Shown here one piece after another: positions 144 to 18,299 of a DNA stretch of 64,000 nt. Under the pieces are notes generated by a model. The model was not told the DNA's origin. It saw nothing but the letters and a program-made list of their open reading frames with translations, and searched no databases. A program made the translations under genes and the position numbers. The stretch comes from Peptococcaceae bacterium UBA5752. Lineage in GTDB: Bacteria > Bacillota > Dehalobacteriia > UBA4068. The stretch covers positions 69,875-133,874 of the forward strand of contig DIFI01000009.1 in NCBI GenBank assembly GCA_002419055.1, in the 5' to 3' direction. Each line of letters begins with the position of its first letter. Within the stretch, counting starts at the first letter, position 1.

Positions 144-3100
144 ATGCCTATCCGAGCAGACCAGCTTCAAGAGAAAAAGGATTACCAGAATCTGATTCTG
201 GAGGAGTTGCGCGACCGCAACGGCTACGTTATCCGCAACGCCCAAACAGACTGGGATGCGGACTTTGCGATGGACAAGGGGCTTCTCTTTCAGTTTTTGG
301 AGACAACCCAGCCCGAAAAAATGGAGAAGCTGCGGAAGTTTTACGCCGACAAAACTAATAAGACGGTCATCAACTACATCAACCGAGAGATTACCAAAGA
401 TCGTAGTTCCCTCATTTATGTTCTGAAAAACGGAGTGGAGTTCGACAACGGTGTAAAACTCGACCTTATGTATCGCCACCCTGCCACGTCGTTTAACGAG
501 AAATTGGCATGGCAGTATGAGCAGAATATCCTCTCGGCTATGGAGGAAGTCTACCACAAGGAGGGCGAGCGGATTGACCTTGTGCTGTTCCTTAACGGGA
601 TAGCCATCTTCGCCGTCGAACTCAAGTGCAATACATCCGGGCAGAACTACGAAAACGCCATTAACCAGTACAAGCACGAACGTGATCCCCATACCCGACT
701 GTTCAAGTTCAAAGCCGGTGTTTTTGCTGCTTTTGCTATGGATTTAAACGAGGTCTACTTCTGCACATCCCTGTGTGGAGTCAACTCGTCTTTCCTGCCG
801 TTTAACATTGGTATGCCGAAGTCACCCGACAAGCCATATTCCATCGGCAAGGGCAACCCACACAATGAGAACGGCATTAACGTCTCCTATATGTGGGAGC
901 AAATCTGGACGAAAGAGAAAATTATCCTACTCATCGAGCGTTTTATCTTCATAGAAAAAAAGAAAGAAAAGAACACCGAAACCGGAAAGACGAAGGTCAA
1001 GGAGACGGTTATCTTCCCGCGTTACCACCAACTTCGAGCGGTGGAGCGGCTTGTGGCGGACATTAAAGTAAACCGCACGAGTCAAAACTACCTCATAGAG
1101 CATTCGGCAGGCAGTGGCAAGACAAACACCATCGCATGGCTCACTCATATCCTTGCCTCCCTGCACGACACCGAAGATAAGAATATTTTCAGCAATATCA
1201 TCGTTATCACCGACCGCATTATCGTAGACCAGCAGTTGCAGGAGGCGATATCGGGCATTGACCATAAAACAGGGCTGCTTAAAGTGTTGGACGAAAAGTG
1301 TCACTCCGACGATCTTGCCCAAGCCCTGCGCGGCAACACGAAGATTATTGTCACTACTATTCATAAGTTCTTCTACATACTCGAAAAGAACCTACTGTCC
1401 CTCAAAGACAAGACCTTTGCTGTACTAATTGACGAGGCGCACTCCTCCACTGAGGGCGATCTTATGCGAGCTGTGACCCACGTCTTGGCTGGCGGCAAGG
1501 TAGAGGAACTCCCTGAAGAGACTCCAGAAGAGGAATCGGAAGAGGAACTGACCACCGACGAAAAAATCAAGGTTGAGCGGGCTAAAGCAGGCAAGCAGCC
1601 GAACGTCACAATGATTGCGTTCACCGCCACGCCGAAGCCCGGCACTTTGCAGCTTTTCGGCACTCTGAACGACGAGGGTAAAAAGACGTGTTTTGACCTC
1701 TACTCCATGCGTCAGGCTATAGAGGAGGGCTATATCTTAAACGTCCTCGATAACTATGTGACATGGCAAACCTACTTTAAGATTAATAAGGCTATTGAGG
1801 ACGACCCTGAACTCCAGTCCATTACTGCCAAACGTAAGATAGCTCGCTTCGTAGATCTGCATGACACGAACATCTCACAGAAAATCGAGATTATTATTGA
1901 GCATTTCCGTCAGAACATCGCCGACAGCCTCGGCGGTCAGGCAAAGGCGATGGTTGTAACCTCTTCTCGCCCTGCGGCGGTTAAGTATAAGAAAGAGTTC
2001 GAGAAGTACATTGAGCGGAATGGTTACACCAATATTCGTGCTTTGATTGCCTTTTCTGGCAAGGTCACGCTTGACGGCGAAACCTACACCGAAGCCGGAA
2101 TGAACGGTTTCTCCGAAGAGACCCTGCGTGACGAGTTTGACAAGAGTATCTATCAGGTTCTGCTTGTCGCCAACAAATACCAAACTGGCTTTGACCAGCC
2201 AAAGCTGGTGGCGATGTATGTGGATAAGAAATTACGCGGCGTATCGGCGGTGCAAACACTGTCGCGCTTGAACCGCATTTTTCGGCCCTACGACAAGCGC
2301 ACATTCATCCTTGATTTCAAAAACAAGGCCGAGGACATAGTGAAGGCGTTTGCACCGTTTTATGAGGAAACGGAGTTGTTCGATACCATCTCGCCGTCCG
2401 ACATCAGACGGTTAGAGGAGGAAATCGAGTTTTATAACATTCTTACCGACAACGATATAATTGAGTTTAACGACCTGCTTTATCTGCCGAAGCGGACAGC
2501 CAAGCAGAAACAACGTATGTGGGCATTGCTTGATAACGCCGCCCGAGAGGTTCGCAAGAAGAATACAGAGGAGCAGTTCGCTATTCGAACGACGATTCGG
2601 CGGTTCCTGAAATCGTACTGTTTCCTCATTCAGGCGACCTGCTACGAAAATGTGGAATTACATAAGCGGTACAACTATCTCTCGTATCTGGTCAAGGAAT
2701 TGGACATCAAGGGCGGGAATGATTTTGACGTCGCCGATAAAATCACGGTGAGCGGCTTCGAGCAGAAGCAGATCGGCGTGATGGCAAACCCCGAAGTCGA
2801 ATCCAAGCCCGAACTAAAAATGAAAACACCGAAGCCTGCCCAGCCGGAAGCCGAGCAACTCAAGATGCTTTCCGTCATCATTGATGAAATAAACACCATT
2901 TACGGCAGCAAAGGCGATACTGGAGTGAGGACAAAGGCAGCTATGCAAATACGAGACATTCTTCTGAAAGACGCACGGCTTAAGGCGAGTGCCAAAAACA
3001 ACCCGTATTCCGACTTCAAGTTTACCTACAAGGACAGCGTGTCAGATGCGCTTGTAGAAGGATACGACCAGAATGTCGATTTTTACACACTGCTTTTGGG

Positions 3101-3176
3101 CAACGAGGAACTACGAGATAAAATAACGGACGTGTTTATGGAGGAGATCTACAAGACCCTGAGAGAAAGCAAATAA
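144..3176 (+). CDS. hsdR: Type I restriction enzyme R subunit (HsdR), 1010 aa
   Basis: The N-terminal PD-(D/E)xK nuclease core reads IDLVLFLNGIAIFAVELK. SF2 helicase motifs are present: HSAGSGKT (Walker A) and VLIDEAHSS (DEAH). An RBS and start codon follow directly after the hsdS stop. Confidence 0.9.
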   Translation: MPIRADQLQEKKDYQNLILEELRDRNGYVIRNAQTDWDADFAMDKGLLFQFLETTQPEKMEKLRKFYADKTNKTVINYINREITKDRSSLIYVLKNGVEFDNGVKLDLMYRHPATSFNEKLAWQYEQNILSAMEEVYHKEGERIDLVLFLNGIAIFAVELKCNTSGQNYENAINQYKHERDPHTRLFKFKAGVFAAFAMDLNEVYFCTSLCGVNSSFLPFNIGMPKSPDKPYSIGKGNPHNENGINVSYMWEQIWTKEKIILLIERFIFIEKKKEKNTETGKTKVKETVIFPRYHQLRAVERLVADIKVNRTSQNYLIEHSAGSGKTNTIAWLTHILASLHDTEDKNIFSNIIVITDRIIVDQQLQEAISGIDHKTGLLKVLDEKCHSDDLAQALRGNTKIIVTTIHKFFYILEKNLLSLKDKTFAVLIDEAHSSTEGDLMRAVTHVLAGGKVEELPEETPEEESEEELTTDEKIKVERAKAGKQPNVTMIAFTATPKPGTLQLFGTLNDEGKKTCFDLYSMRQAIEEGYILNVLDNYVTWQTYFKINKAIEDDPELQSITAKRKIARFVDLHDTNISQKIEIIIEHFRQNIADSLGGQAKAMVVTSSRPAAVKYKKEFEKYIERNGYTNIRALIAFSGKVTLDGETYTEAGMNGFSEETLRDEFDKSIYQVLLVANKYQTGFDQPKLVAMYVDKKLRGVSAVQTLSRLNRIFRPYDKRTFILDFKNKAEDIVKAFAPFYEETELFDTISPSDIRRLEEEIEFYNILTDNDIIEFNDLLYLPKRTAKQKQRMWALLDNAAREVRKKNTEEQFAIRTTIRRFLKSYCFLIQATCYENVELHKRYNYLSYLVKELDIKGGNDFDVADKITVSGFEQKQIGVMANPEVESKPELKMKTPKPAQPEAEQLKMLSVIIDEINTIYGSKGDTGVRTKAAMQIRDILLKDARLKASAKNNPYSDFKFTYKDSVSDALVEGYDQNVDFYTLLLGNEELRDKITDVFMEEIYKTLRESK

Positions 3177-3259
3177 ACTATGCAGCTTTGCTGACAACGG
3201 GCAGCTCTGAGCCGCCCTTTCTCTCATTAAAACGAATTATATTCAAGGAGAATGGGCGG

Positions 3260-4852
3260 ATGGAGTATAACTACGACAAAGTAACGCTTGTGCCTATAAA
3301 CGTATGCAGGGACAACTATGACGAGGTTGCGGCTGACTTCCTCAAGCATTACGGCTGCGCCCAATATTTAACGACACCAATGCCGGTGCCAATATTTGAG
3401 ATTGCTCAAAAGCGTATGTTCCTGACGGTTTATACGAACCAACAGTTGTCGGAAAGCGGAGAAGTTCTGGGAACAATTGCTTTTTTTGACGGCGACTTGG
3501 ATGTGTACGACCCCGGCACTAAAAGTTACATCGGGTTTCCTGTAAAAAAAGGGACGGTCTTGGTCGACTGCACTATTGACCACGAGGGCAGAGAAAATAA
3601 CACGATGGCGCATGAATGCGTCCATTGGCATATACATCGTAACTATTTCGGGAATCTCCGCCGGAAAACGGCTGACTCGGATATAGCATTCCGTTGCCCA
3701 TCTAGACTGTCGGACGGTGACGAAGCAACCCGCGACGAGGAACGGATGGAGAAACAGGCTCGTGGCATAGCTCCGCGCATCCTAATGCCGAAAAACTCCA
3801 CAACAATTAAACTAAACGAACTTTTTGCCTCCCGTACCGTCCCCCAAGACGGTGAGCGGAGGCTTGCTGTACTTACAGAGATAGTGGACGAATTAGCCGC
3901 GTTTTACCACGTTTCCAAGATGTCAGCAAAATACCGTATGGTCGACCTGGGTCGTATGTCCCACGAAGAAGCTGAGCAGATTTACAACTTTGATAACAAT
4001 TCGCTGGCATGGGACTTCTCTGAGCACCCCCTGACGGTCAAGACGAGTAGCCGTCCGATGACACGCCACATCACGATTGAACAGGTTATTTATGAGTTTG
4101 GCAGAAATGCGGCTTTCAGAGAAGTGTTGCATAGCGGACTGTTCCGCTTTGTCGAGGATGCTTTTGTTATTAACGACCCGAAATATATACATACCGATGA
4201 TGAGGGTAAGACTCGGCTGACTCCATATGCGATAAAACATCAACAGGAATGTACACTCATCTTTGAGTACGCCGTTTCTGTCAGCCATAATTACAGCCAC
4301 ACCGATACAGAAAATTTCCAACCCAATATAATGAATATGCTCACTATGGGCTTCCTCACGAGGGTGGAAACAGAGTATAAGAAGCTGCCAAGGTACACAT
4401 CAAACGTTCAGAATGATGCTGCGTTTGATGTAGCCAAGGCTCTGGATGCAGTCAAAGCAGATTTTGACAAGTTCGCCAAAGCGCGTACTGCCTTAGCCCC
4501 AGCGACGGACTTCTGGGACAGGGTCGATCAGATTAAGACCGCCAAGAGTATAAGAAACAGCACCTTTAAAGACCGCTCTGGTCTTGACGATGCAACGATA
4601 AGCAGAATCAAGCTGAAAAAGACAGCGGTAACGCTCCGTGTCGCCATCGCTGCCTGTTTCGGGCTCGATTTGGATATAGATGAGTCAAAAAAGCTACTGG
4701 CTTTAGCAAAGCTGGCTCTCAATGACGAACCGGAATGCCTTGCCTATGAGTTTGTTATAATGAACTTCCAGTTTTGCCCTCTGTTCGAAAAGAATGAGGT
4801 GCTACAGAAGTTCGGTGTTGAGCCTATCGGGGTTCGTTCGAAAAAAGACTAA
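3260..4852 (+). CDS. Large ImmA/IrrE-family (HExxH) metallopeptidase-domain protein with a ~330-aa C-terminal region of unknown function
   Basis: The ORF track gives 3188..4852. The in-frame ATG at 3260 is preceded by AAGGAG at 3245-3250. The motif MAHECVHWHIH is typical of COG2856/ImmA zinc peptidases. The remainder has no recognisable motifs. Confidence 0.6.
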   Translation: MEYNYDKVTLVPINVCRDNYDEVAADFLKHYGCAQYLTTPMPVPIFEIAQKRMFLTVYTNQQLSESGEVLGTIAFFDGDLDVYDPGTKSYIGFPVKKGTVLVDCTIDHEGRENNTMAHECVHWHIHRNYFGNLRRKTADSDIAFRCPSRLSDGDEATRDEERMEKQARGIAPRILMPKNSTTIKLNELFASRTVPQDGERRLAVLTEIVDELAAFYHVSKMSAKYRMVDLGRMSHEEAEQIYNFDNNSLAWDFSEHPLTVKTSSRPMTRHITIEQVIYEFGRNAAFREVLHSGLFRFVEDAFVINDPKYIHTDDEGKTRLTPYAIKHQQECTLIFEYAVSVSHNYSHTDTENFQPNIMNMLTMGFLTRVETEYKKLPRYTSNVQNDAAFDVAKALDAVKADFDKFAKARTALAPATDFWDRVDQIKTAKSIRNSTFKDRSGLDDATISRIKLKKTAVTLRVAIAACFGLDLDIDESKKLLALAKLALNDEPECLAYEFVIMNFQFCPLFEKNEVLQKFGVEPIGVRSKKD

Positions 4853-4872: not shown

Positions 4873-7434
4873 ATGGACAATGCTTACCAATGGGTACCCT
4901 TTTACGAGGCTCTCGCCAACAAATTACTTGCGTACAGCGCTAAAAGGAATGAACTCTTTGAGTTGATGAAAAAGGTGCGGTCTGAACAACCGCTTATGAA
5001 ATACCTCAACTTTGAGCGCGAGGACTGGTGGGGACCGCGTAACCATCATATGGATCCGCTAACCGTGATTGGAATCTTGAATCGCGGAACAACGGATGCC
5101 AATAGGATTAAACTGTCGAAAGTTCTTGCTGAGACATTCGGTGTGGAACTTCCCACGCCCACTCAATTTGCGGGGATTCCAGTCTTGAACAATATGAACT
5201 CCTTCTTTAACGGCCCAGATGAGGTCTGGGAACTGTTTATACAAGCAATGGCATCTGCGCAGTCAAACAACTTCTCGTATGAGTTTAGGACCGCCTTTGA
5301 AAAGGCTATTGCCGTGAAGGGCAATGGTCTGGCTTACATTACTATGGGATTATATTGGATACGCCCCAACATCTTTATGCCCCTCGATGGTAATTCCAGA
5401 GCTTTTGCGTCCGCACACTATGGCATTACTGTTCCGAGCGGTAATTGCACAGGAGAAGAATACGTCGCTTTCCTGAAAACCCTCAAGGCTAAGGTTGCCG
5501 AACGGTCGCCTGACATGACATTCCCTGAAATATCCTATACCGCTTGGACGCAAAAAGACAGCAAAGCGGATGAGGATTCTATTCAGGCTTCATCGGTTAT
5601 TGATGAGCAGCATCAGCGGGCGGCGTTTAAGCAATGGTATACAAAAAACGTCGGGTCAGCGAATTCGGCCAATACCATATCGACCGCTATTGGTAAAGCG
5701 CGGCTGAAAGATGGGCGGGCAGTATTCGCTATTGCCAGTTTTGACGAACTGGATGCCGTGATAAAAAGCAGCGGTCTTGATGGCTATTTTCAATCAAGCG
5801 GCGGAGACTATGCCAAGATGGATGCCGTCTTTGAAATTGACACTACCGCTCAGCGCGACGACCTGAAGAGCGGAATCAAGCACTACCTTGCTTTCCTGAA
5901 GAGCGAAGGTGTGACCTCTACTTCTACTACGCCGTCTGATTCGATCACGCAAACGCCAAAGTTTGCCAGGAATCTCATTCTTTGCGGCACCCCCGGCACG
6001 GGCAAAACATACAGCACCGTGCTATATGCTGTTTCGATTATCGAGGAAAAGCCGCTTAATGCTGTCAAAGCCGAGGACTACTCGGCGGTGTTTGCTCGCT
6101 ACTTGAAATACAAAGAGGACGGTTTGGTAGCATTCACGACATTTCATCAGTCATTCGGTTATGAGGAGTTTATTGAGGGGATTCGTCCTGTAGTCTCAGC
6201 AGAGGAGAATGCCGAAACGGGGCGGGATATTGAGTACGAGGTTCACGACGGTATTTTTAAGTCGTTCTGCGACAAAGCTGGAACACCTATCGGTGGTGGT
6301 ACAAGCGTGGACTTGGGCTTCGGCAAGAACCCGTCGGTCTGGAAGGTCTCTCTTGAAGGAAGCGGCGACAACCCAACCCGCACGGAGTGTCTCAACAACA
6401 ACCATATCAGAATCGGATATGACAGCTACGGCGAAACCCCACCCGACACCTATGAAAAAGGCGATAACGGTAGGAACATTCTGAATGCGTTCTATTATAA
6501 AATGCAAATTGGGGACATCGTATTCTCATGCTACTCCAACAAGACCATTGATGCTATCGGCGTTATCACGGGCGAACCAGAATGGCACGATGAATACGAG
6601 CATTACAAGCGGCTACGCAACGTCAAATGGCTCGTTAAAGACATTAGCGAGGACATCTTTGACCTCAATGCCCAAAGACTGATGATGCAGCCCTCGGTCT
6701 ACAAGCTGTCGGTATCGGTGTCGGATGCTCTCCAGATTCTCCGCAAGGTGAAGCCCGCCCTTTTCACGCCGAGTGTCAAAATTCCGAACCGTGTGTTTAT
6801 CATCGACGAAATTAACCGAGGAAACATCTCAAAAATCTTCGGAGAACTGATAACACTCATCGAACCCGCGAAGCGCACCGGGGCAAAGGAACAGCTTCGC
6901 GCACGACTGCCTTATTCAGGGAAAGATTTTGGTGTACCTGATAATGTCTACCTCATTGGAACTATGAACACCGCCGACCGCTCCATAGCCCTGATTGATA
7001 CTGCTTTGCGACGCAGGTTCAGCTTTGTGGAGATGCAGCCGGATTCAGCGACGCTTACCGATGTTCTTGTTGATGGTATCGACATTAGCGAAATGCTTGA
7101 TACCCTAAATAAGCGCATCACCGTCCTGCTCGACCGCGAACACACCATCGGGCATTCCTATCTGCTCCCACTGAAAGCCGACCCGACAATTGAACGGCTC
7201 GCAGCAATTTTTGAGAACACGATTGTCCCGCTTCTGCAGGAGTATTTCTATGATGATTACGAAAAAATTCAGCTTGTGCTGGGTGACAACCAGAAGCCAG
7301 ATGACAGCACGCGCTTTATTATAAAGAAGACGGACGCCGTCAAGATGTTTGGGAACGCCGACATTGACTTCCCTGAATATTACGAAATAAATGGCGAGGC
7401 GTTTAAGAGGATTGATGCCTATGCGTTCCTATGA
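4873..7434 (+). CDS. McrB-family AAA+ GTPase (type IV restriction-like motor subunit), 853 aa, with a ~360-aa N-terminal region and an internal inserted domain
   Basis: A GGGAGG RBS precedes the start. McrB signature motifs are present: LILCGTPGTGKTY, FHQSFGYEEFIEGIRP, VFIIDEINRGNISKIFGEL and GTMNTADRSIALIDTALRRRFSF. There is a ~165-aa insertion between FCDKAG and the Walker B segment, relative to E. coli McrB. Confidence 0.85.
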   Translation: MDNAYQWVPFYEALANKLLAYSAKRNELFELMKKVRSEQPLMKYLNFEREDWWGPRNHHMDPLTVIGILNRGTTDANRIKLSKVLAETFGVELPTPTQFAGIPVLNNMNSFFNGPDEVWELFIQAMASAQSNNFSYEFRTAFEKAIAVKGNGLAYITMGLYWIRPNIFMPLDGNSRAFASAHYGITVPSGNCTGEEYVAFLKTLKAKVAERSPDMTFPEISYTAWTQKDSKADEDSIQASSVIDEQHQRAAFKQWYTKNVGSANSANTISTAIGKARLKDGRAVFAIASFDELDAVIKSSGLDGYFQSSGGDYAKMDAVFEIDTTAQRDDLKSGIKHYLAFLKSEGVTSTSTTPSDSITQTPKFARNLILCGTPGTGKTYSTVLYAVSIIEEKPLNAVKAEDYSAVFARYLKYKEDGLVAFTTFHQSFGYEEFIEGIRPVVSAEENAETGRDIEYEVHDGIFKSFCDKAGTPIGGGTSVDLGFGKNPSVWKVSLEGSGDNPTRTECLNNNHIRIGYDSYGETPPDTYEKGDNGRNILNAFYYKMQIGDIVFSCYSNKTIDAIGVITGEPEWHDEYEHYKRLRNVKWLVKDISEDIFDLNAQRLMMQPSVYKLSVSVSDALQILRKVKPALFTPSVKIPNRVFIIDEINRGNISKIFGELITLIEPAKRTGAKEQLRARLPYSGKDFGVPDNVYLIGTMNTADRSIALIDTALRRRFSFVEMQPDSATLTDVLVDGIDISEMLDTLNKRITVLLDREHTIGHSYLLPLKADPTIERLAAIFENTIVPLLQEYFYDDYEKIQLVLGDNQKPDDSTRFIIKKTDAVKMFGNADIDFPEYYEINGEAFKRIDAYAFL

Positions 7435-8722
7435 TAAGACCTACACCATAACTGAATATGGCGGGTTTACTCGCGGAGAGGCATTGTACGGCTATCAGGG
7501 GTTGCCGGAGAAAACCTTTGACGCACTTGAAGCCTTCATTCTCGCAAATAACACGGGAGACGGAACGGACGCAATCGAATTGCTATCGCTGTCTGCCCGC
7601 CGTGGATTAGGCAAAATTATCACTGCTCGCAATTATGTTGGGTTGATAACAATGGCCGACGGCACTGTTATTGAGATACTCCCCAAAATAGCAGGCGATA
7701 TTACCGTGGCTGACACAAAGCGAATATTCCTTGAGATGCTTAAAACGCTAAAGGACGTGACATTTAAGGACTTCAATGTATCACATCTCCATACCGACCG
7801 CCTTGGTCTGCTTGAAATCTTTATCAAGATGTTTCTTGACGAAGTGGCAGTCCTTACAAAGCAGGGTTTGAAAGCGGCATACACGCCCATCGAGAAAAAC
7901 GAACGGTTTTACAAAGGAAAGCTGCTGGCTTCCCAAAACATCAAATACAATTTGGTGAGCAAGGAGCGGTTTTTCGTCCGTTACGATGATTTCAGCATAA
8001 ACAGGCCTGAGAACAGGCTGATAAAGTCCACGCTTGGCTTTCTCCTTAAAGCAACCAGCAACAGCTATAACAGGCAAAGCGCAGCACGGCTCCTGACCTT
8101 CTTTGAGGGTGTCGAATATTCCAAGAGCTACGATGAGGATTTTTCGAAGTCCTTTATTGACCGCAGTATGAACCATTACAATAAGGCACTCTCGTGGTGC
8201 CGTGTTTTCCTGCATGGCAACAGCTTCACCGCCTATTCGGGAAGCGAGGTCGCATTGGCACTTCTTTTCCCGATGGAGAAAGTTTTCGAGAGTTTTGTGG
8301 CTTCCAAATTTCACAAGCACATTGGGAGTAGCGTAAGCCTACGGACGCAAGATACAAGATACAGCCTGTTTGATAGCCCGACACATGCCTTTGCCCTCCG
8401 CCCAGACATTGTTTTGGAGTTCGGTGGGCATACGATCGTTTTGGACACAAAGTGGAAGATGCTCTCCGATAACGCCCGAAACAGCGGGATCTCGCAGTCT
8501 GATATGTACCAAATGTACGCTTATAGCAAGAAATACGACGCAGACGGTATCGTCTTGCTCTACCCTCATTCAAACGCTGTGAGCCGAAGCAACATAAGGT
8601 ATACATCTGAGGATAATGTTAAAGTCGATGTTTCTTTCATCGACCTTCGAAACGCAGACGAGAGCATCACAAATTTGATAGCAGATTCGCTAAAAGCCAT
8701 AAACAAGGCGGTGACAATATGA
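7415..8722 (+). CDS. McrC-like PD-(D/E)xK nuclease subunit, ~436 aa
   Basis: The start overlaps the stop of the upstream GTPase gene, with AAGAGG at 7405-7410. A C-terminal nuclease motif reads RPDIVLE...IVLDTKWK, as in the McrC catalytic core. The ORF track start at 7391 lies inside the previous gene. Confidence 0.8.
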   Translation: MPMRSYDKTYTITEYGGFTRGEALYGYQGLPEKTFDALEAFILANNTGDGTDAIELLSLSARRGLGKIITARNYVGLITMADGTVIEILPKIAGDITVADTKRIFLEMLKTLKDVTFKDFNVSHLHTDRLGLLEIFIKMFLDEVAVLTKQGLKAAYTPIEKNERFYKGKLLASQNIKYNLVSKERFFVRYDDFSINRPENRLIKSTLGFLLKATSNSYNRQSAARLLTFFEGVEYSKSYDEDFSKSFIDRSMNHYNKALSWCRVFLHGNSFTAYSGSEVALALLFPMEKVFESFVASKFHKHIGSSVSLRTQDTRYSLFDSPTHAFALRPDIVLEFGGHTIVLDTKWKMLSDNARNSGISQSDMYQMYAYSKKYDADGIVLLYPHSNAVSRSNIRYTSEDNVKVDVSFIDLRNADESITNLIADSLKAINKAVTI

Positions 8723-9789
8723 ATCCAAACGGAAACGCCCTAATCCTTAGACCAAGGCAGGCGGTCTTTGATGTGACGGACAAGTCCCTCTATTCGTTCA
8801 ACGAACGGGAGGGATTATCGAAGTTCCGAGAAGCCGCCACCGTGGTAGCTCTTGACAGCTTTTTCTCATTGGCAGATTCGGACGCCGCCAAATTCGTTAT
8901 ATACTTGGGCGAGAAAGTACCGCATATTCAGAACCTGTTTGATTCATTGAGGGGCAAGAAGGAACTTGTCGCCAAGCTATCTGATAAAGCAAAGAAAAAA
9001 CTCGCAAGCGGCGAATGGCACTGGGTGACCACAAAAGACGGCAGCGATTTGCTGACCACCCTGAAAGACGAAGCAGGGCATTTCGCAGAGCAAATCAAAA
9101 TCGGCGAGAAAACAATCCGCCCGGATATGATGAATGCCCTCATTAGTTTAACCCAGCAAAACAATCTTGACGCTCTTACGGACAAGATTGTTGAACTAAC
9201 GGAGACGGTTGAGAGAATCGCCGCCGGGCAGTACAACGACCGCATATCGATGTTCTACGAGGCAAGACAGACCTATATTGAAGCAATGGCTATGTCCGAA
9301 CCCGAAGACCGCCGAATTGCGCTACTTAATGCAGCACATTCCGCAAACAAGGCGATTTCCTCTTTGCAGCAGACCGTAAAATACGATTTGACCACTTTGC
9401 TGTCGGCGAAAGGCAAACTCGGCGACAGAACGAAGCTGATTGCAAAATGCTTCTCAATTCTTAACGATTCCGTCCAGATTTCGGTTAATTCCTATGCAGC
9501 ACTCGGTGAGAATCGTGCATTGCTTGCAGCGGTGACGTCATACCAGTGTTTTGTGGAGCAGACGCTGTTGGCAATTCCTGAAAAAGCATCGGACAAGAAA
9601 TACTCTGGCTGTACATTAGCAGAAATAATGTACTCCTGTGCTGAATTAGGCGGCACCGACTGGATAAAGCTTCCTCACGAGATAGTAGGGGCTTGTGAAA
9701 CGCTTATACAAACCGAGCGTGAAACGATTGCGGTTATCGCCGAAGAGTTCGAACCTAAAGAACTTGGAGGGCAAGAAGATGAAGTGTAA
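8719..9789 (+). CDS. Hypothetical 356-aa predominantly alpha-helical protein, translationally coupled to the McrC-like gene
   Basis: Its ATG overlaps the McrC-like stop (ATGA overlap). There are no recognisable catalytic motifs. Composition and codon usage match the upstream genes. Confidence 0.7.
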   Translation: MNPNGNALILRPRQAVFDVTDKSLYSFNEREGLSKFREAATVVALDSFFSLADSDAAKFVIYLGEKVPHIQNLFDSLRGKKELVAKLSDKAKKKLASGEWHWVTTKDGSDLLTTLKDEAGHFAEQIKIGEKTIRPDMMNALISLTQQNNLDALTDKIVELTETVERIAAGQYNDRISMFYEARQTYIEAMAMSEPEDRRIALLNAAHSANKAISSLQQTVKYDLTTLLSAKGKLGDRTKLIAKCFSILNDSVQISVNSYAALGENRALLAAVTSYQCFVEQTLLAIPEKASDKKYSGCTLAEIMYSCAELGGTDWIKLPHEIVGACETLIQTERETIAVIAEEFEPKELGGQEDEV

Positions 9790-9958
9790 GGCTTGTGGCA
9801 AGGAACTAATCGGCAAAGAAAAGCTGTTTTGTAAAAGTTGCTGGTCAAAAGGGACAGACAAGGCGAAAAAAGGTGCGATGGCTGTAGGTGGTCTGACTTT
9901 GACCGTAGTGTCGGTTATTGTTACAAAAGGAAAATTTAAGGGCGGTGGCGACACATAA
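9779..9958 (+). CDS. 59-aa zinc-ribbon peptide with a C-terminal transmembrane segment
   Basis: A GGAGGG RBS lies directly upstream, and the ATG overlaps the end of the 356-aa gene by 11 nt. A CxxC...CxxC motif (CKACG...CKSCW) is followed by the hydrophobic stretch AMAVGGLTLTVVSVIVT. The ORF track's 9695 start lies inside the preceding gene. Confidence 0.5.
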   Translation: MKCKACGKELIGKEKLFCKSCWSKGTDKAKKGAMAVGGLTLTVVSVIVTKGKFKGGGDT

Positions 9959-10237
9959 TGTTTCCATTATACGTGATAGTATGCCTTTCAACATAGTCCG
10001 TTAGGATGAGCCATTCTCATAGATGCTCCGGCTGCTGATTGACATCAAGGACAAAGAGACTTGCAAGAGTTTATAGGCTATGTGTTCCGTGACGGCGACA
10101 TCGGCTCGGATATTGATAAAATCTTACCGCCTGGTTCCCATTTTAGGGCGGCTATCGAGATGAAAGCATTAGACTGTTATCGAAAAACCACCGGAATTCT
10201 TTGAGGAGTTTTCGGCGTAGCGTAAAAGAGGTGTCGT

Positions 10238-11545
10238 ATGGCCACACAGATGTTAAAAATAGATGAGGCTATTCTGGAAAGCAATAATATCATTTGTCGC
10301 CAGATTAGCCGCCTGGGTGAATCTACAAGAGGCGAGGTTTCACAGGAAGTCTTAGAATCGCTAAGGCATTTTGTGGAGCATATCCTCCTTAAGGTTTATG
10401 CCGACGGCGAGGATATAGAAGATACGCAGGAAAATGTTAAGGCGGCGGTTAAACATGCAAAGAGTAACTCCAATTTGAAACATTTGTCACGGTTTCACCA
10501 TTTTCTGCAGGTGTCTGTTTCTCATCGTGCTTTAAAAGAGCAAAATGCCGAACGGCTGATGCTGAAATATTATGAGTATCTGTTGCAGATTAGGAATTTC
10601 TTGCACGATAGTTATTCTCTTGATGTGCTTGCTAACCTTGAGCAGTTCCCATTGGAAACAGATGAAAGTCTGATAGAGTATTATAAAAAAATCGCTGAAA
10701 AGGTTAGTAAATACAATACTCCGATACACGGCGAGTTCCGTTATGACCGTTTTTACGTGCAGAAAATCAAGCCGTTTTTTGTTGGCGGTAAAATATATTA
10801 TGAGGTAGCTTTTGTCCCCGCAAATGACAATGCGAGTAAAACTGATCGTATTATCGCTTTTACCGATATAGAGATAACAAGCTTTTATGCCGTAAAGTTT
10901 GCCATAGCCAACAACAGTGTAGAAATCCTCGGCAAACATATGCCCATCCGCATTATTGTGGACTGGGAAGTAAACATTCGACCTTGCGAACTAAAAAACT
11001 TCACAGCAATTATTGAAAGGACGCCCAGAGAGTATGGCAAAGCTGAACAACGCGAACTTAGCCGATATCTAACTGAAACCGGGCTTAGCCTTTCGGAAAT
11101 CATTATGTTTTCTGATGAGGCATTTGCGGCAGTTCGTGACCGTATTGTGCCTAAAACAGAATCCACGCACTTCTTTGATTGCCTCGAAACTTGCAGGAAT
11201 CTTATAAATCAGAAAGCAAACGGTAGCAATATACTGCGATATTTGCTTCACCATATGACAAATAGAATTATTAAAAGTCAATATAAAGAACACTATAAAT
11301 GGAATTATTATGAAGATCGTTATGAATATGTAGGCGGAAATTTTAAACTTTCAAATCTTTATTTAGCTTATGAATGCATTCCGTTCGATGATATGCCGTT
11401 TTGCTCGGGTTTGAAAAGTCACGTTCCGAGCCTTTCGGATTTGTTTGAATGCCTCGATGCAAGCGGTCGTGAACACGAGGTTTTAGCGTGGATATTAAAA
11501 ACAATACAGAACAGCAAGGTATGCTCTTTACTCCGCTCGAAATAA
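10238..11545 (+). CDS. Hypothetical protein, 435 aa: N-terminal helical region, central beta-rich region, Cys-rich C-terminus
   Basis: A long ORF with an AAAGAGG RBS. It sits in an AT-richer block than the upstream module. Its 3' end overlaps the downstream helicase gene. Confidence 0.7.
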   Translation: MATQMLKIDEAILESNNIICRQISRLGESTRGEVSQEVLESLRHFVEHILLKVYADGEDIEDTQENVKAAVKHAKSNSNLKHLSRFHHFLQVSVSHRALKEQNAERLMLKYYEYLLQIRNFLHDSYSLDVLANLEQFPLETDESLIEYYKKIAEKVSKYNTPIHGEFRYDRFYVQKIKPFFVGGKIYYEVAFVPANDNASKTDRIIAFTDIEITSFYAVKFAIANNSVEILGKHMPIRIIVDWEVNIRPCELKNFTAIIERTPREYGKAEQRELSRYLTETGLSLSEIIMFSDEAFAAVRDRIVPKTESTHFFDCLETCRNLINQKANGSNILRYLLHHMTNRIIKSQYKEHYKWNYYEDRYEYVGGNFKLSNLYLAYECIPFDDMPFCSGLKSHVPSLSDLFECLDASGREHEVLAWILKTIQNSKVCSLLRSK

Positions 11546-13059
11546 ATGAAGACGGGAAATATAAACTCGGCAATTTTGACGATGTTGCTGCTCTCGTAAA
11601 AACGTATAATGAAAAACTTTACGATTCGCCAAAGCAGCAACTTCGTAAAATGATAATCAAGTACGACCATGTTTTTATTGACAGCTACAAGGAGGATACG
11701 GTATCAATCATTAAGACGATTAAAGGCCTTACTCAAAGCGGCATTGACAACTACGCTAATTTGGTAAGCTACTGGATGCAAACTACCAATCAAGTGAACA
11801 GCGAAGAGAAAAAGCAAGCCTTGCTCGGAATGTTTACCGACTCAAAAGTGGCTCTTATTTATGGTTCGGCTGGAACAGGCAAGTCATACTTGATTAACCA
11901 TATCTCGCATTTATTTGCTAATAAATCAAGACTGTACTTAGCACAAACAAACCCCGCCGTAAATAATATGAGGCGAAAAGTTACAGCTTCAGCGGATAGT
12001 ACTTTTATGACAGTGTCGAAATTTACGAACCCATATTACAAAGGAAAAACCGAGTTTGACATTCTTATAATCGACGAGTGTAGTACGGTAAACAACCATG
12101 ATATGAGAACTATTCTCAGTCGAGCGAATTTCGAGTTACTTGTTTTAGTCGGGGACACCTATCAGATAGAGGCTATTGAGTTTGGCAACTGGTTTGATGC
12201 TGTGCGTAGTTTCTTGCCGGAAACCTCTGTATGCGAGCTAACGAAGCCTTACAGAAGTGATAGCCCCGCTTTATTAAGACTTTGGAGCGATGTCCGAAAA
12301 ATGGAAGACGATATTTTTGAACTTTTGCAAACATATAGCTACTCGGCAAATTTAGACGCAACGATTTTCACTTCCGCTGCTGAAAATGAGATAATCCTAT
12401 GCCTTAACTACGGCGGTCTGTATGGCATAAACAACATCAATCATTTTCTTCAAGAAAACAATAATGGTAAGGAAATATGGCGGGGCGTTCAGCGTTATAA
12501 GGTGAGTGACCCGATTCTGTTTAATGACTCGGCAGATAAGTTTTTCACACGAATCGATGACCAAGTTCCTGTTATTCATAACAATATGAAAGGTCGTATT
12601 ATTGATTTTAAAGTGCTAGACGACGGAAAAGCAAACGAAAGTATTCAATTTGATATTGAGATTGACAGACCTCTTATTGAAATGGATGCAAAGAATATGG
12701 ACTTCACGATTGTAAGGAACGCTGCCAACGGGAATTCTGTCATACGCTTTGCTATAAACAAAAACAAAAGCACCGATGAAGACGATGACGGCGTTTCAAA
12801 AACACTCGTACCGTTCCAAATTGCTTACGCCGTATCTATTCACAAGGCACAGGGCTTGGAGTACGACTCTGTCAAAGTTATCATAACCGATGAGATTGAC
12901 GAATTGATAACTCACAGCATTTTTTACACCGCAATAACCCGTGCAAGAAAATTGCTGAAAATATACTGGACGCAATCCGTCGAAAAGAAAGTACTTGAAC
13001 GGATAGAACCGAAGGACAATAAAAAAGATGTGGCACTGCTAAGGTTAGAAATAGTCTGA
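11488..13059 (+). CDS. SF1 RecD/Dda-like helicase (AAA_30 + UvrD_C_2-type), 523 aa
   Basis: Motifs present: Walker A GSAGTGKSY, Walker B ILIIDECSTV, motif III VLVGDTYQIE, motif V/VI VSIHKAQGLEYDSVKVII and YTAITRARKLL. The GTG start at 11488 has a GAGG 8 nt upstream; the alternative ATG is at 11521. It overlaps the upstream gene by 25-58 nt. Confidence 0.8.
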   Translation: MDIKNNTEQQGMLFTPLEINEDGKYKLGNFDDVAALVKTYNEKLYDSPKQQLRKMIIKYDHVFIDSYKEDTVSIIKTIKGLTQSGIDNYANLVSYWMQTTNQVNSEEKKQALLGMFTDSKVALIYGSAGTGKSYLINHISHLFANKSRLYLAQTNPAVNNMRRKVTASADSTFMTVSKFTNPYYKGKTEFDILIIDECSTVNNHDMRTILSRANFELLVLVGDTYQIEAIEFGNWFDAVRSFLPETSVCELTKPYRSDSPALLRLWSDVRKMEDDIFELLQTYSYSANLDATIFTSAAENEIILCLNYGGLYGINNINHFLQENNNGKEIWRGVQRYKVSDPILFNDSADKFFTRIDDQVPVIHNNMKGRIIDFKVLDDGKANESIQFDIEIDRPLIEMDAKNMDFTIVRNAANGNSVIRFAINKNKSTDEDDDGVSKTLVPFQIAYAVSIHKAQGLEYDSVKVIITDEIDELITHSIFYTAITRARKLLKIYWTQSVEKKVLERIEPKDNKKDVALLRLEIV

Positions 13060-13301
13060 CTACAATCTAAGAAATTATCGCCTTCTATGCACTGATTTGT
13101 TTCCACGAACAGATAAAGTCATAAAAAGCATTGGACATATTCCCGCGCACGGAGAATACCCCCAATATTGCCCTTGCCTTGTTTCCTTGCACGGAAAATC
13201 AGCAAAACACATACCAGACATTAATCTGATGCTATCGTTCCACGTAGAGACAGCGATTGTACATTATATCCGAAATTGCCATGTTGGCAGGAGGCAGGAT
13301 T

Positions 13302-14768
13302 ATGAAAAGGAATATTTTATTATTTATTTTAACAGCCGTAATGATTTGCTGTATACTCCCTACTGCAACGGCTTACGCAGAGAACATTACCGTAACCCCA
13401 ACGACATCCAGCGTTCTGGTTGATGGCTCGTCGCAATCCTTTAATGCTTATAATATCAATGGCAATAACTATTTTATGTTAAGAGACATCGCTTTTATCC
13501 TCAACGGAACGGACAAACAATTTGCAGTAGTATGGGACAAAGCGCAAAATGCAACCTACCTGACCACCGGACAAGGCTATACAGCAGTGGGAGGCGAGAT
13601 GCAGGCGGCTGCCGGCAGCGCTACAAAAACCGCCGCATTGGCAAATTTTGAAGTATACATAAATGGCCAAGAGGTTTTCTTGACAGCCTATAACATTGAC
13701 GGCTATAACTATTATAAATTGCGTGATCTTGGCATGTATCTTGATTTCGGGGTGGACTGGAACGGCAGTGCTGATACAGTTGAGATTTCGTCCACAAAGG
13801 GATATACGCCGGAAGGTGAACCAGTAATCGGCATACATACATCTGTATATGATGACGAAACGGCACAAATGTTAATTGACAGCTTGCAGGGACTTGCCGA
13901 TCAAGGGATTAATCTGATAGTTATTGAAGTCGGATATAGTTATCAATATACCAGTCACCCTGAATTAGCATCGGACTATGGGCTATCCTTTGAATATGCC
14001 AGAAAAATAGCAAAAGCGGCCAACCAACTAGGTATTGAAGTTGTGCCGGAGATTGATTGTCTAGGTCATCAATCATGGGAAGAATATACAGGTTCTTTAT
14101 TGTCGGTTTATCCCGGGTTGGACGAGACGCCCGGTCAATATCCCAACAATCAAGGAATTTATTGCCGCAGTTGGTGCCCATTAAATGAAAAGGTTAATCC
14201 CATCGTTTTTGATTTGATAGATGAGTTGATGGACGCTTTTCATGCGGACGCCTTTCATGTTGGATTAGACGAAGTTTTTATCATTGGCGATGACAATTGT
14301 CCGAGATGCCGGGGTAAATATCCGGGAGAATTGTTTGCCAAACAGGTTAACGATTTATATCAGCATATAGTTGTTGAAAAGGGCGCTACTATGTATATGT
14401 GGTCGGACGGATTATTAGACGGCGCAGCGCTGGGAGATGTGTATTCCGAATGGGAATCTTCTTATAATGGAACTTGCACTGCAATCAACAAAATACCAAA
14501 GGATATTATTATGTGTGATTGGCATTATGGCGTACTTGACGATTATCCGTCCATAGAGTATTTAACGGATGCCGGTTTTAGGGTATTGACGTCGAGTTGG
14601 AATGACATCAAAGCTACCGAGAATTTCATTCAAGACACTGTGCAAAACAGAAGAACAAATGCCAATGTGCTGGGACATCTTTATACGACATGGGGAGATA
14701 TTGAAAATGACGATTTGGCCGATTGGTCGCCGATGAAAGCCACGATTAAAATGTTGACTGGCGATTAA
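13302..14768 (+). CDS. Secreted protein with two copper-amine-oxidase N-terminal-like repeats and a GH20-like (beta-hexosaminidase-like) catalytic domain
   Basis: There is a GGAGG RBS and the signal peptide MKRNILLFILTAVMICCILPTATAYA. Repeats YNINGNNYFMLRDIAFIL and YNIDGYNYYKLRDLGMYL are present. The GH20-like motifs PEIDCLGH and FHVGLDE are present. Confidence 0.65.
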   Translation: MKRNILLFILTAVMICCILPTATAYAENITVTPTTSSVLVDGSSQSFNAYNINGNNYFMLRDIAFILNGTDKQFAVVWDKAQNATYLTTGQGYTAVGGEMQAAAGSATKTAALANFEVYINGQEVFLTAYNIDGYNYYKLRDLGMYLDFGVDWNGSADTVEISSTKGYTPEGEPVIGIHTSVYDDETAQMLIDSLQGLADQGINLIVIEVGYSYQYTSHPELASDYGLSFEYARKIAKAANQLGIEVVPEIDCLGHQSWEEYTGSLLSVYPGLDETPGQYPNNQGIYCRSWCPLNEKVNPIVFDLIDELMDAFHADAFHVGLDEVFIIGDDNCPRCRGKYPGELFAKQVNDLYQHIVVEKGATMYMWSDGLLDGAALGDVYSEWESSYNGTCTAINKIPKDIIMCDWHYGVLDDYPSIEYLTDAGFRVLTSSWNDIKATENFIQDTVQNRRTNANVLGHLYTTWGDIENDDLADWSPMKATIKMLTGD

Positions 14769-15896: not shown

Positions 15897-18299
15897 ATGG
15901 CTGCAGCTAAAACAAAACATAAGAAGAAAACAAATACAACAACCTCTTCACGTAGCAAGAGCGGTAAACTTACTGCAGCACAAATGGCACGTGATAAGGA
16001 AATTCTCGGTATTGTCATAATAGCCGTCGCTTTGTTGTTATTTGTTAGCTATATATTGGCTCCGACCGATGCAGATGCAGCCGGCATGGGCGCGGTTAGC
16101 TTATTGCTGATCGATCTTATGCGTTTCTTTGCCGGCAGCGCAGCCATCGCTCTGCCGTTTTTACTGTTGGTTTTTGGTGTGCTTGTATTGCTTAATAGAA
16201 ACAAAAATGAAAACAGTAACTTACGGCTGGCCGGTTTGATAATGATGTTTGCTGCACTTTTAGGTTTATTACATCTTGGTATGCCAATGCAAAGTTTTGG
16301 TGCTTATATGCTGGATGCAGTATCGGGCAATGGCGGTGGTATTATCGGCGGTTTGCTGGCCTTCGCACTAATTTCAGGATTTGGCATAGCAGGTGCGGTT
16401 ATTATATTACTGGCGGTAATTCTTATTGGTTTACTTATATTTACCAAGACTTCGATCGTTTCTGTTTTCGCATATATTAAACAAGCCTTTAGCTCATTAT
16501 TAGGTATTATTAATTCGGGAGAAGAAGATCAACCGCAAAATGAGATTGCGACGAAGACCGCATTAAAAAAGAATGCGGAGGCGCTAATGCGTGAGGCTGC
16601 TGATGATCAACGCCGCCGATCACTGATTCGTAATACATTTGATGCAGCGCCATTAATCAGCAACAGTGATACCGTTATATCGCCTCCTCCGTCTCAAACC
16701 GGTTTTTCCCGCGAATACTTACAGGATATTGATAAACCGGAAGCGAAGGCAGATGCCCATATTGTCACTAAACCTAGTGTTGCTAAAGCGGCTAAAGCAG
16801 TGACAGCTTCGTCAGCTTCAGTGGCGTCTGTTGTAGAAGTTAGTACTACGCCTAGTTCAGAACCATCGCCGGTGATGGAATCATATGTATTACCTGATCC
16901 TTCTTTAATCAGCCGAGGTGAACATCATAGCGACATTGAGATGAAAAAGGCCATCGCTGAGTCAATAGAGATTTTAGAAACGACATTAGCTGATTTTGGC
17001 GTCAAAGCCGAAGTTGTTCAGGTAGTTCCCGGTCCGGCAGTAACCCGTTATGAGCTGCAACCGGCGCCGGGTGTTAAAGTTGCTCGTATAACCAGTCTTG
17101 CCGATGATATAGCGTTGACTTTGGCAGCTCCGGCTGTGCGGATCGAAGCGCCAATCCCCGGCAAGTCGGCAATCGGCATCGAGGTTGCTCGCCGCGTTAC
17201 CGATACGGTATATTTCCGCGAGGTTATTGAAAGTAAAGAGTTTATCGATAGTCCGGCTAAGCTTTCCTTTGCTCTTGGCAAAAATATCGGCGGCGAATCA
17301 ATCGTCGGCGACTTAGCAAAAATGCCTCATTTGCTGATTTCCGGCGCTACCGGCAGTGGTAAAAGTATTTGCCTAAACTCGATAATTTGCAGCTTACTTT
17401 TTAAGGCAAAGCCTAATGAAGTCAAACTGATGCTAATTGACCCCAAAAAGGTTGAGATGACCGCCTATCGCCAGCTGCCTCATCTGTTAGTGCCGATAGT
17501 CACCGACAGTAAAAAGGCCGCAAGCTCTCTTAAATGGGTTGTTACCGAGATGGAGGACCGTTATTCGCTGTTTGCAGCTTCTGCTACAAAGGATTTCAGC
17601 GGCTATAATGCAGCGAAACCTGATAATCCTTTGCCTTACATAGTGGTTATTATTGATGAGCTGGCTGATTTAATGCTGGTTGCTAAAAAAGATGTCGAGG
17701 AATCAATCTGCCGTATTGCCCAGCTGGCGCGAGCCGCCGGTATTCATTTGGTCGTAGCAACGCAACGTCCATCTGTTGATGTGATAACCGGCTTGATCAA
17801 GGCAAATATTCCTTCAAGAATAGCATTTGCTGTTTCTTCAAATACTGATTCACGTACCATACTTGATATGGCCGGAGCCGAAAAGCTTTTAGGGCGCGGA
17901 GATATGCTGTATTACCCAATTGGCGCCAATAAGCCAATGCGGATTCAAGGAACATTCATTGCCGAAAAAGATGTTGCCAAGCTGATCGATTTCTGTGCCA
18001 AACAAACCACACAAAAATTTTCCGAGCAGGCCACCGCAGCCGCTGTCAGTAATCGATCCGATGAGCTTGATGAGGATATGGACGAGTTGTTCTACAAAGC
18101 AGGTACACTGATTATTGCCAGTAAACAAGCATCTACATCGTACCTGCAACGGCGCCTGGCGATCGGCAATCCGCGTGCCGCACGGCTGATGGATATTTTA
18201 GAGTGTAAAGGCGTGGTAGGTGGACCAAACGGCTCCAAACCACGGGAAGTATTAATGAGCGATGAGGAGTTTGAGAGTATATTTGGATCTGGTGCATGA
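15897..18299 (+). CDS. ftsK: DNA translocase FtsK/SpoIIIE
   Basis: There are N-terminal TM helices, a linker, and a motor domain with LLISGATGSGKS (Walker A) and VVIIDELADL. A C-terminal gamma (winged-helix) domain is present. Confidence 0.9.
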   Translation: MAAAKTKHKKKTNTTTSSRSKSGKLTAAQMARDKEILGIVIIAVALLLFVSYILAPTDADAAGMGAVSLLLIDLMRFFAGSAAIALPFLLLVFGVLVLLNRNKNENSNLRLAGLIMMFAALLGLLHLGMPMQSFGAYMLDAVSGNGGGIIGGLLAFALISGFGIAGAVIILLAVILIGLLIFTKTSIVSVFAYIKQAFSSLLGIINSGEEDQPQNEIATKTALKKNAEALMREAADDQRRRSLIRNTFDAAPLISNSDTVISPPPSQTGFSREYLQDIDKPEAKADAHIVTKPSVAKAAKAVTASSASVASVVEVSTTPSSEPSPVMESYVLPDPSLISRGEHHSDIEMKKAIAESIEILETTLADFGVKAEVVQVVPGPAVTRYELQPAPGVKVARITSLADDIALTLAAPAVRIEAPIPGKSAIGIEVARRVTDTVYFREVIESKEFIDSPAKLSFALGKNIGGESIVGDLAKMPHLLISGATGSGKSICLNSIICSLLFKAKPNEVKLMLIDPKKVEMTAYRQLPHLLVPIVTDSKKAASSLKWVVTEMEDRYSLFAASATKDFSGYNAAKPDNPLPYIVVIIDELADLMLVAKKDVEESICRIAQLARAAGIHLVVATQRPSVDVITGLIKANIPSRIAFAVSSNTDSRTILDMAGAEKLLGRGDMLYYPIGANKPMRIQGTFIAEKDVAKLIDFCAKQTTQKFSEQATAAAVSNRSDELDEDMDELFYKAGTLIIASKQASTSYLQRRLAIGNPRAARLMDILECKGVVGGPNGSKPREVLMSDEEFESIFGSGA

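Follow-up and report, generated by a model that had tools for sequence, protein, structure and literature searches.

McrBC, the founding Type IV restriction system, has always been considered to choose its targets through N-terminal reader domains. The EVE, YTH and PUA-like readers found in McrB homologues have been described as N-terminal fusions (PMC7641849; the PcdA preprint, PMC10602043; the review PMC12707154). Bell et al. 2024 (PMC11090510) mentioned, in one sentence and with the details deferred, that the GTPase domains of McrB proteins frequently contain insertions which likely encode specificity domains, and these insertions were removed before the trees were built. An embedded EVE, YTH or PUA-like reader in McrB, i.e., one that is not N-terminal, is not described in the literature searched. 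This report deals with an mcrB homologue in a stretch of 64,000 nucleotides (nt) from contig DIFI01000009.1 of Peptococcaceae bacterium UBA5752, hereafter the window, meaning the whole stretch that was analyzed. The encoded protein, 853 amino acids (aa) long, carries within its AAA+ motor an additional domain of about 172 residues, which corresponds to the Pfam family DUF8426 (PF28530), has a predicted EVE-like fold and is conserved throughout a large clade of McrB proteins whose N-termini are unrelated.

The McrB motor and the insertion site

The mcrB product is a bona fide McrB. It matches the NCBIfam McrB model at 3e-35 and, when compared with the PDB sequences by phmmer, it retrieves the McrB of T. 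gammatolerans (TgMcrB, 6ut3, E = 5.8e-54) and that of E. coli (EcMcrB, 6hz4, E = 4.7e-32). Walker A (GTPGTGKT, aa 372-379) and Walker B (FIIDEINRGN, aa 642-651) align to both structures, and the McrB signature NxxD (GTMNTADRS, N699-T-A-D702) and the RRRF motif (aa 713-716) align to TgMcrB. The TTFHQS motif at aa 422 is the start of the beta2/helix-2-insert region, whose β-hairpin with conserved aromatics (TTFHQSFGYEEFIEGIRP...YEVHDGIF) aligns to residues 58-100 of 6ut3 and is followed by helix 2 (DGIFKSFCDKA, aa 459-469). The helix-2 insert was described in PMC7680126, and the NxxD motif was defined in PMC11090510 and PMC7680126. The adjacent gene encodes the partner McrC, in which the PD...D-x-K motif is intact (RPDIV...LDTKWK). 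Judging from the intact motifs (Walker A/B, NxxD, RRRF and PD-DxK), both the motor and the McrC nuclease look functional.

The additional domain (aa 470-641) lies between helix 2 and Walker B, where the phmmer alignments to the solved McrBs break. Residues 418-469 of the query align to residues 65-105 of 6hz4 and residues 640-800 to 113-288; for 6ut3, the corresponding pieces are 420-468 to 58-100, 638-726 to 164-252, and 737-811 to 292-363. Thus, the junction between helix 2 and Walker B is about 9 residues long in E. coli McrB and about 63 in T. gammatolerans McrB (100 to 164). The block containing Walker B (query 638-726 versus 164-252 of 6ut3) scores 117.6 bits with near-identical DEINRGNISKIFGELITL...GTMNTADRS...RRRF motifs, so that Walker B is not mis-assigned.

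A preliminary description, made from the sequence alone, had located a large domain at 6290-6780 inside the McrB core, with 11 residues at the corresponding position of the E. coli protein and about 175 here. The span (aa 473-636) falls within the insert, and the strings quoted for it, SVWKVSLEG, HIRIGYD and RNVKWLV, are found at aa 488-496, 511-517 and 582-588, respectively. The two counts were essentially right and only slightly off, the alignment giving about 9 and about 172. The same description had named a mis-assigned Walker B as a possible source of error, and the alignment to the solved McrBs places the insertion exactly between helix 2 and Walker B.

Predicted fold and conserved residues of the insert

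Residues 470-641 were modeled with AlphaFold2 from an alignment of 28 sequences sharing 38-63% identity with the query. The mean predicted local distance difference test score (pLDDT) was 88.6 and the predicted template modeling score (pTM) was 0.83. In the model, DSSP assigns the order b-a-b-a-b-b-b-b (E20-23, H32-39, E42-45, H63-74, E80-84, E89-96, E111-125 and E140-142, in model numbering), the barrel being built of beta1 (VWKV), alpha1, beta2 (HIRI), alpha2, beta3 (IVFSC), beta4 (TIDAIGVI), a long beta5 that includes RNVKWLV, and beta6 (VYK). The topology b-a-b-a-b-b-b-b is the one given for the EVE barrel by Bell et al. 2020 (PMC7641849).

The Foldseek comparison of the insert model with the PDB returned 33 matches at E ≤ 1e-3 and, among the matches listed, all are YTH or EVE-type PUA-like domains. 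They include YTHDF2 (8e-5, template modeling (TM) scores 0.48/0.54), MJECL36 (2p5d, 1e-4, TM 0.52/0.61, root mean square deviation 3.3), the endonuclease VcaM4I, which depends on 5-hydroxymethylcytosine (5hmC) or 5-methylcytosine (5mC) (6yex, 1.2e-4, TMq 0.51), PH1033 (1wmm/2hd9, 2e-4), and also YTHDF1/3, YTHDC2, Mmi1 and Atu2648 (1zce). When viral models were searched, the matches included EVE- and ASCH-annotated proteins. Thus, the PUA-like barrel that the preliminary description had proposed from sequence features is recovered by structure prediction and by the Foldseek comparison.

Further indications come from the residues retained in 132 insert sequences. W490, K491, L494, N500, R513, G547, D548, D560, G563, R582 and W586 are invariant; position 516 always holds W, F or Y, as does position 554 in 129 of the 132. 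The aromatic positions 490, 516, 554 and 586 fall on beta1, beta2, beta3 and beta5, an order that matches that of the four invariant aromatics in canonical EVE proteins (W3, W36, Y60 and W104).

Two cysteines, C506 (ECL on alpha1, 6388-6390) and C553 (SCYS on beta3, 6529-6531), are 97-99% conserved in the same 132 sequences and are not present in canonical EVE proteins; they might be joined by a disulfide, coordinate a metal or lie within the pocket.

Searches of the local Pfam, NCBIfam and PDB-sequence collections with the insert gave nothing meaningful. An NCBIfam match to IraD (0.022) was discarded, and a PDB profile match of the C-terminal third to HsdM (3khk, 0.0099) was judged marginal. 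Among weak PADLOC matches, aa 529-600 align to the N-terminal part of the candidate defense protein PDC-S02 (1.2e-5). This match is suggestive of the same barrel elsewhere, but adds little because the PDC-S02 family has no known function.

Distribution of the insert

The precomputed Pfam annotation of an identical protein (P0001) consists of DUF8425, DUF8426, AAA_5 and McrB_lid, with DUF8426 nested inside AAA_5; the local Pfam copy is older than the DUF8425 and DUF8426 families and therefore gave only a split AAA_5. Among the 120 best full-length homologues, 116 have the insert at the same place, with 65-100% identity. PF28530 is missing in exactly the four homologues that lack the insert, which identifies DUF8426 with the insert.

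An exhaustive phmmer search with the insert only, against 1.84 billion representatives clustered at 50% identity, yielded at least 601 clusters with E ≤ 1e-3, of which 161 reach E ≤ 1e-30. Walker A upstream and DExNR downstream of the insert occur in 131 of the best 150 representatives of these 601 clusters. The spacing between Walker A and Walker B is 237-286 residues in 109 of 112 complete proteins, whereas the N-terminal region ranges from ~10 to ~750 residues. Since the insert is kept at the same site in 116 of 120 homologues and in 131 of 150 cluster representatives, it is neither due to chance nor an assembly artifact; furthermore, the identical McrB protein is found on two independent contigs, a 513-kb JGI contig and a Logan contig. 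The arrangement, previously called architecturally unusual, deserves that name only in comparison with the characterized McrBs, because it is common in sequence databases.

The insert and the N-termini behave differently. In 57 diverse members, the mean pairwise identity is 0.49 for the first AAA+ part, 0.56 for the insert core, 0.67 for the second AAA+ part and 0.36 for the lid, whereas the N-terminal regions are unrelated to each other (0.17-0.21). These region-wise identities define the insert as the fixed part, and the N-termini as the variable part, of a large McrB clade. A Pfam scan of the N-termini of the same 57 members detected MrcB_N once, Type I R-subunit domains once and DUF7225 once, and no N-terminal EVE domain. 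Hundreds of 50%-identity clusters keep the EVE-like barrel in the motor and shuffle N-terminal domains around it.

Some members have no N-terminal domain at all. One of 469 aa (P0183) is a complete McrB with Walker A at residue 21 and the insert as the only accessory domain; its gene precedes mcrC on two independent contigs, one of Bacteroidia from NCBI and one from Logan. A second complete member of this type is 466 aa long (P0260). These proteins support the idea that the insert is able to act as the sole recognition module.

The DUF8426-type clade is found mostly in Clostridia, and also in Dehalococcoides and Bacteroidia. A scan of GTDB genomes with a single insert sequence retrieved only metagenome-assembled genomes (MAGs) of Clostridia/Bacillota, the closest being a Bacillota MAG with 99% identity over the insert.

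Two proteins depart from the common layout. A DUF8426-bearing McrB of 565 aa without an N-terminal domain (P0269) has a second insertion of ~100 residues, helical to judge by its sequence, which separates the Walker A helix from beta2; one AAA+ domain thus contains two insertions. In a protein of 718 aa (P0187), DUF8426 is N-terminal to an FtsK/SpoIIIE motor with a gamma domain. This protein was set aside as evidence of an autonomous DNA-associated module, because it was found only once, on a contig of 11 kb, and because its sequence begins with the end of the McrB helix 2, so that it may be a chimera.

A cassette slot between helix 2 and beta3

The four close homologues without the insert (P0116, P0117, P0119 and P0120) share 72-90% identity with the query in each of the flanking regions and carry an unrelated cassette of ~115 aa (NFEKAWNALIAAAKQNGN...) between DGIFKAFCDSA and RVFIIDEINRGN, at exactly the same site. 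They belong to the same type of Type I-McrBC operon (P0116 is encoded at 8001-10400 of locus L006). The occurrence of an unrelated cassette exactly there in close relatives indicates that the helix 2/beta3 site behaves as a module slot, and this loop can be flagged as such in McrB evolution, being occupied by about 9, 63, 115 or 172 residues in different homologues. A 2026 preprint on LlaI places the AAA+ insertions of TgMcrB over the surface where a separate DNA-binding subunit docks in LlaI.

Proposed function and alternative explanations

We propose that the insert is a motor-embedded nucleic-acid reader, probably of a flipped modified base, and assign to this reading a probability of roughly 0.58. 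In the McrB hexamer there would be one such barrel per subunit. From the predicted fold and the conserved positions, we infer a pocket lined by W490, W/Y/F516, Y/F554 and W586, together with K491, R513, D548, D560 and R582, which may take up a base flipped out of foreign DNA, probably a modified one. The next step would be for the hexamer to recruit or license GTP-driven translocation and McrC cleavage, by analogy with the N-terminal EVE, YTH and SRA-like domains of characterized McrBs. Within the clade, the insert would be the constant reader and the unrelated N-terminal domains would act as variable, add-on specificity modules.

The strands of the AAA+ (ASCE) sheet are all parallel. This means that a domain inserted immediately ahead of beta3 leaves the fold at the edge where an N-terminal fusion enters before beta1, and for this reason its geometry would be equivalent to that of the classical N-terminal reader arrangement.

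Several results weigh against the reader model. In the first place, 28 diverse insert sequences do not match Pfam EVE (PF01878), YTH or ASCH at E ≤ 1, and hhalign against four canonical PDB EVE proteins, represented by a four-sequence alignment taken from PDB alignments, gives only a 30-column local match (E = 0.016, probability 2.8%). The TM-scores obtained with Foldseek are moderate (0.45-0.6), the insert is not basic (K+R 20 versus D+E 21), and the putative aromatic cage is deduced from sequence positions only. In addition, the insert core is as conserved as the motor (56% versus 49-67%) while the N-termini are unrelated, and such motor-like conservation is more in keeping with a fixed structural or regulatory part than with a specificity module that diversifies. 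Finally, at least one member contains MrcB_N, a known 5mC reader, in addition to the insert.

The stretch matched by hhalign (NAFYYKMQIGDIVFSCYSN-KTIDAIGVITG versus RNFLRAMKLGEEAFFYHSNCKEPGIAGLMKIV) pairs GD-IVFSCYS-IDAIG of the insert with GE-AFFYHS-GIAG of EVE. It coincides with the motif GD.VF..YS...I.AIG.V that had been singled out in the preliminary description, and no other part of the insert is aligned by hhalign with canonical EVE proteins. The EVE/PUA-like assignment thus holds for the predicted fold and topology, but not at the level of profiles. Because fold and topology fit, the sequence-profile test fails and the TM-scores are moderate, the insert is best filed, on the basis of its model, as a divergent EVE-like family of its own (DUF8426) in the PUA-like superfamily, and not as a member of PF01878.

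The main rival to the reader model is a structural or allosteric role, which we consider unlikely: the EVE-like fold would have been co-opted as a fixed element that does not read bases, either as a dock for the N-terminal domains or McrC, or as an inter-subunit brace controlling hexamer assembly and GTPase asymmetry. An insert core as conserved as the AAA+ core, next to N-termini that vary freely, is what this role would produce, and in the member that also has the classical 5mC-binding domain MrcB_N a second reader would be redundant. The neutral to acidic net charge and the location of the insert, adjoining Walker B and the McrC-contacting helix-2 insert (PMC7680126), point in the same direction, as does the argument, in the LlaI preprint, that AAA+ insertions shape the docking place of DNA-binding modules. 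However, the insert is retained in members without an N-terminal domain, and its four invariant or near-invariant aromatics and invariant Arg, Lys and Asp are patterned like the pockets of ligand-binding EVE domains. Moreover, an insert indispensable to the structure of the ring is hard to reconcile with close relatives that work with an unrelated cassette in its place.

It is very unlikely that the barrel senses a free modified nucleotide, another small molecule released in infection, or a modified RNA, and thereby gates the GTPase allosterically. A precedent exists in another defense system, where PUA-Cal-HAD is reported to bind m6-dAMP (bioRxiv 10.64898/2026.01.15.699771). The best structural matches of the insert are RNA m6A readers, a domain so highly conserved could well have a single universal ligand, and its place beside Walker B suits allostery. 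On the other hand, McrBC systems are DNA translocase-nucleases, and the one described here belongs to the NxxD clade and is associated with a Type I restriction-modification system (PMC11090510); furthermore, in the cases tested (TgMcrB), modified DNA is what the McrB-fused YTH and EVE domains bind.

The last explanation, that the insertion is an artifact of a mis-assigned Walker B, a frameshift or a chimeric assembly, is excluded, since the open reading frame (ORF) is single and uninterrupted, the identical protein occurs on independent JGI and Logan contigs, Walker B and the downstream motifs align to the solved McrBs at 117 bits, the Walker A-Walker B spacing is steady (237-286 residues in 109 of 112 complete representatives), and nothing was found in its favor.

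The N-terminal region

Residues 1-365 were modeled separately with AlphaFold2 (pLDDT 82). The model consists of an all-helical domain (aa 1-229, DUF8425) and a small α/β domain (aa 243-346), with disordered linkers at aa 230-242 and 347-365 flanking the latter. The DUF8425 domain is common to all 120 close homologues, whereas the middle domain is found in only a part of them and is missing from the homologues of 750 aa.

Foldseek found no significant fold match in the PDB for the N-terminal region. The weak top matches of DUF8425 are consistently DNA glycosylases of the helix-hairpin-helix (HhH)-GPD type (Ogg, MagIII, EndoIII and MutY; E 0.3-5, TMt 0.36-0.40), and the domain contains an HhH-like string, GNGLAYITMGLYWIRPNIFMPLDGNS, resembling a helix-hairpin-helix followed by a 'PvD' element. 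DUF8425 may be a glycosylase-derived base or lesion reader. Sequence searches of the N-terminal region gave nothing beyond a marginal HMG-box-like match, in which the profile of aa 196-258 (5458-5646) meets the SMARCE1 HMG box (2crj) at E 0.012, with EYVAFLKTLKAKVAERSPDMTFPEISYTAW aligned.

The idea of two readers, the N-terminal domain and the insert, is a lead only. In its most elaborate form, an EVE-like reader would be hard-wired between the pore hairpin (the helix-2 insert) and Walker B, so that the capture of a modified base would mechanically license GTP hydrolysis and McrC cleavage, and a swappable N-terminal lesion- or base-binding domain, possibly HhH-glycosylase-like, would add combinatorial two-reader recognition. 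We regard this proposal as decidedly unlikely; if true, it would represent an allosteric reader-in-motor design distinct from the tethered N-terminal readers.

The operon and its neighborhood

The gene is part of an operon with Type I restriction-modification genes (Table 1). On the JGI and Logan contigs that encode the identical McrB, the order is hsdM-hsdS-hsdR-(M78-like)-mcrB-mcrC, and the same layout is found for homologues from Dehalococcoides and others. Bell et al. 2024 (PMC11090510) reported that the NxxD branch of McrB is frequently associated with Type I restriction-modification systems, and the layout found here matches that branch.

Table 1. Features of the mcrBC operon and of the McrB homologue, with positions in the window
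Feature	Position	Strand	Remarks
hsdR, Type I restriction-modification	144..3176	+	immediately upstream; hsdM and hsdS precede it in the source contig, just outside the window
M78/IrrE-like HExxH protein	3188..4852	+	Pfam Peptidase_M78 3.4e-5; PADLOC capP 1e-10
mcrB homologue	4873..7434	+	single uninterrupted ORF, 853 aa
N-terminal all-helical domain, aa 1-230, Pfam DUF8425 (PF28527)	4873..5562	+	AlphaFold2 pLDDT mostly 85-97
small α/β middle domain, aa 243-346	5599..5910	+	AlphaFold2 pLDDT about 86-94
AAA+ large subdomain, first part (Walker A, beta2/helix-2-insert hairpin TTFHQSFGYEEFIEGIRP, helix 2)	5965..6279	+	
inserted domain with linkers, aa 470-641, Pfam DUF8426 (PF28530)	6280..6795	+	
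predicted EVE/YTH-like barrel core of the insert, aa 488-612	6334..6708	+	DSSP of the AlphaFold2 model
AAA+ large subdomain, second part (Walker B, NxxD, RRRF)	6796..7047	+	
AAA+ small (lid) subdomain, Pfam McrB_lid (PF28529)	7048..7431	+	
mcrC, nuclease partner	7391..8722	+	Pfam McrBC 1.2e-91; NCBIfam McrC 3.9e-29

The longest ORF of mcrC overlaps the end of mcrB by 44 nt (7391-7434), while public gene calls start 10 codons later, giving a protein of 433 aa and an overlap of 14 nt; either overlap suggests translational coupling. The HExxH protein (MAHECVHWHIH) is 530-554 aa long, its probable start being codon 25 (about 3260), and it is found between hsdR and mcrB in all related loci examined. 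It is 62% identical to the product of the gene at the same position in locus L004 and may be a regulator or sensor of the island.

Directly after mcrC, and overlapping its stop codon, there is an ORF of 356 aa (8719-9789) with no family match. In related loci this position is occupied by a Macro-domain protein of ~344 aa, after which come two further proteins (439 and 217 aa) and an ADP-ribosylglycohydrolase. The 356-aa ORF was rejected as the counterpart of the Macro-domain protein, since there is no similarity between the two.

Further downstream, at ~10000-13500 of the window, the guanine plus cytosine (GC) content falls from about 0.48 to about 0.39-0.40. Here, the gene of a 435-aa protein without a family match (10238-11545) overlaps that of an SF1 helicase of the AAA_30/Viral_helicase1/UvrD_C_2 type (11488-13059). 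This low-GC region may be a separate defense or mobile module. The window also contains ftsK (15897-18299), ~8.5 kb downstream of mcrB.

Comparison with known systems

E. coli K-12 McrB has the same motor and NxxD motif as the protein described here, likewise has McrC as its partner and is also associated with a Type I restriction-modification operon (PMC11090510). Its reader, however, is N-terminal (DUF3578/SRA-like), and its insertion site holds just about 9 residues.

TgMcrB (YTH-McrB, 6UT5; N-terminal domain 6P0F) is also an NxxD GTPase that works with McrC and has an accessory module of the YTH/EVE superfamily, the AAA+ cores matching at E 5.8e-54. Its YTH domain binds modified (m6A) DNA, and its ~63 extra residues occupy the same helix 2/beta3 junction. 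However, the reader of TgMcrB is an N-terminal fusion, whereas the EVE-like domain described here is inside the AAA+ large subdomain and comes in addition to about 360 aa of other N-terminal domains; no sequence similarity between the TgMcrB reader and the insert is detectable.

VcaM4I and the related EVE/PUA-HNH modification-dependent endonucleases are, like McrBC, Type IV restriction components, and the predicted fold of the insert matches the N-terminal domain of VcaM4I, which reads 5hmC/5mC. VcaM4I (6YEX) is nevertheless a two-domain reader-HNH enzyme without a motor, and its sequence identity to the insert is 13%.

The canonical EVE proteins (PF01878; THYN1 5J3E, PSPTO5229 2EVE and Atu2648 1ZCE) and PH1033/MJECL36 have the same b-a-b-a-b-b-b-b barrel as the insert model. 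They also share with the insert the conserved aromatics on beta1, beta2, beta3 and beta5 and the motif GD-x-hydrophobic-x-(Y/F)-x-S...G-I-G. The insert differs from them by the lack of a profile-level match, by its own invariant or near-invariant N500, C506, C553, D560 and R582, and by extra C-terminal helices.

Insertions in the GTPase domain of McrB are thus already on record, and DUF8426 is already catalogued: an identical protein is annotated with this Pfam entry, named as a domain of unknown function. The literature searched makes no mention of DUF8426 or PF28530 and, as far as we can tell, the EVE-like fold, the exact site, the clade-wide conservation as opposed to the variable N-termini, and the swapping of cassettes had not been described. 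If the barrel does read bases, DUF8426 would gain a function and the clade would offer a tractable system for the coupling of base recognition to GTP hydrolysis. Besides the N-terminal fusions of the characterized McrBs, there would then be a second architecture that links a reader to an AAA+ translocase.

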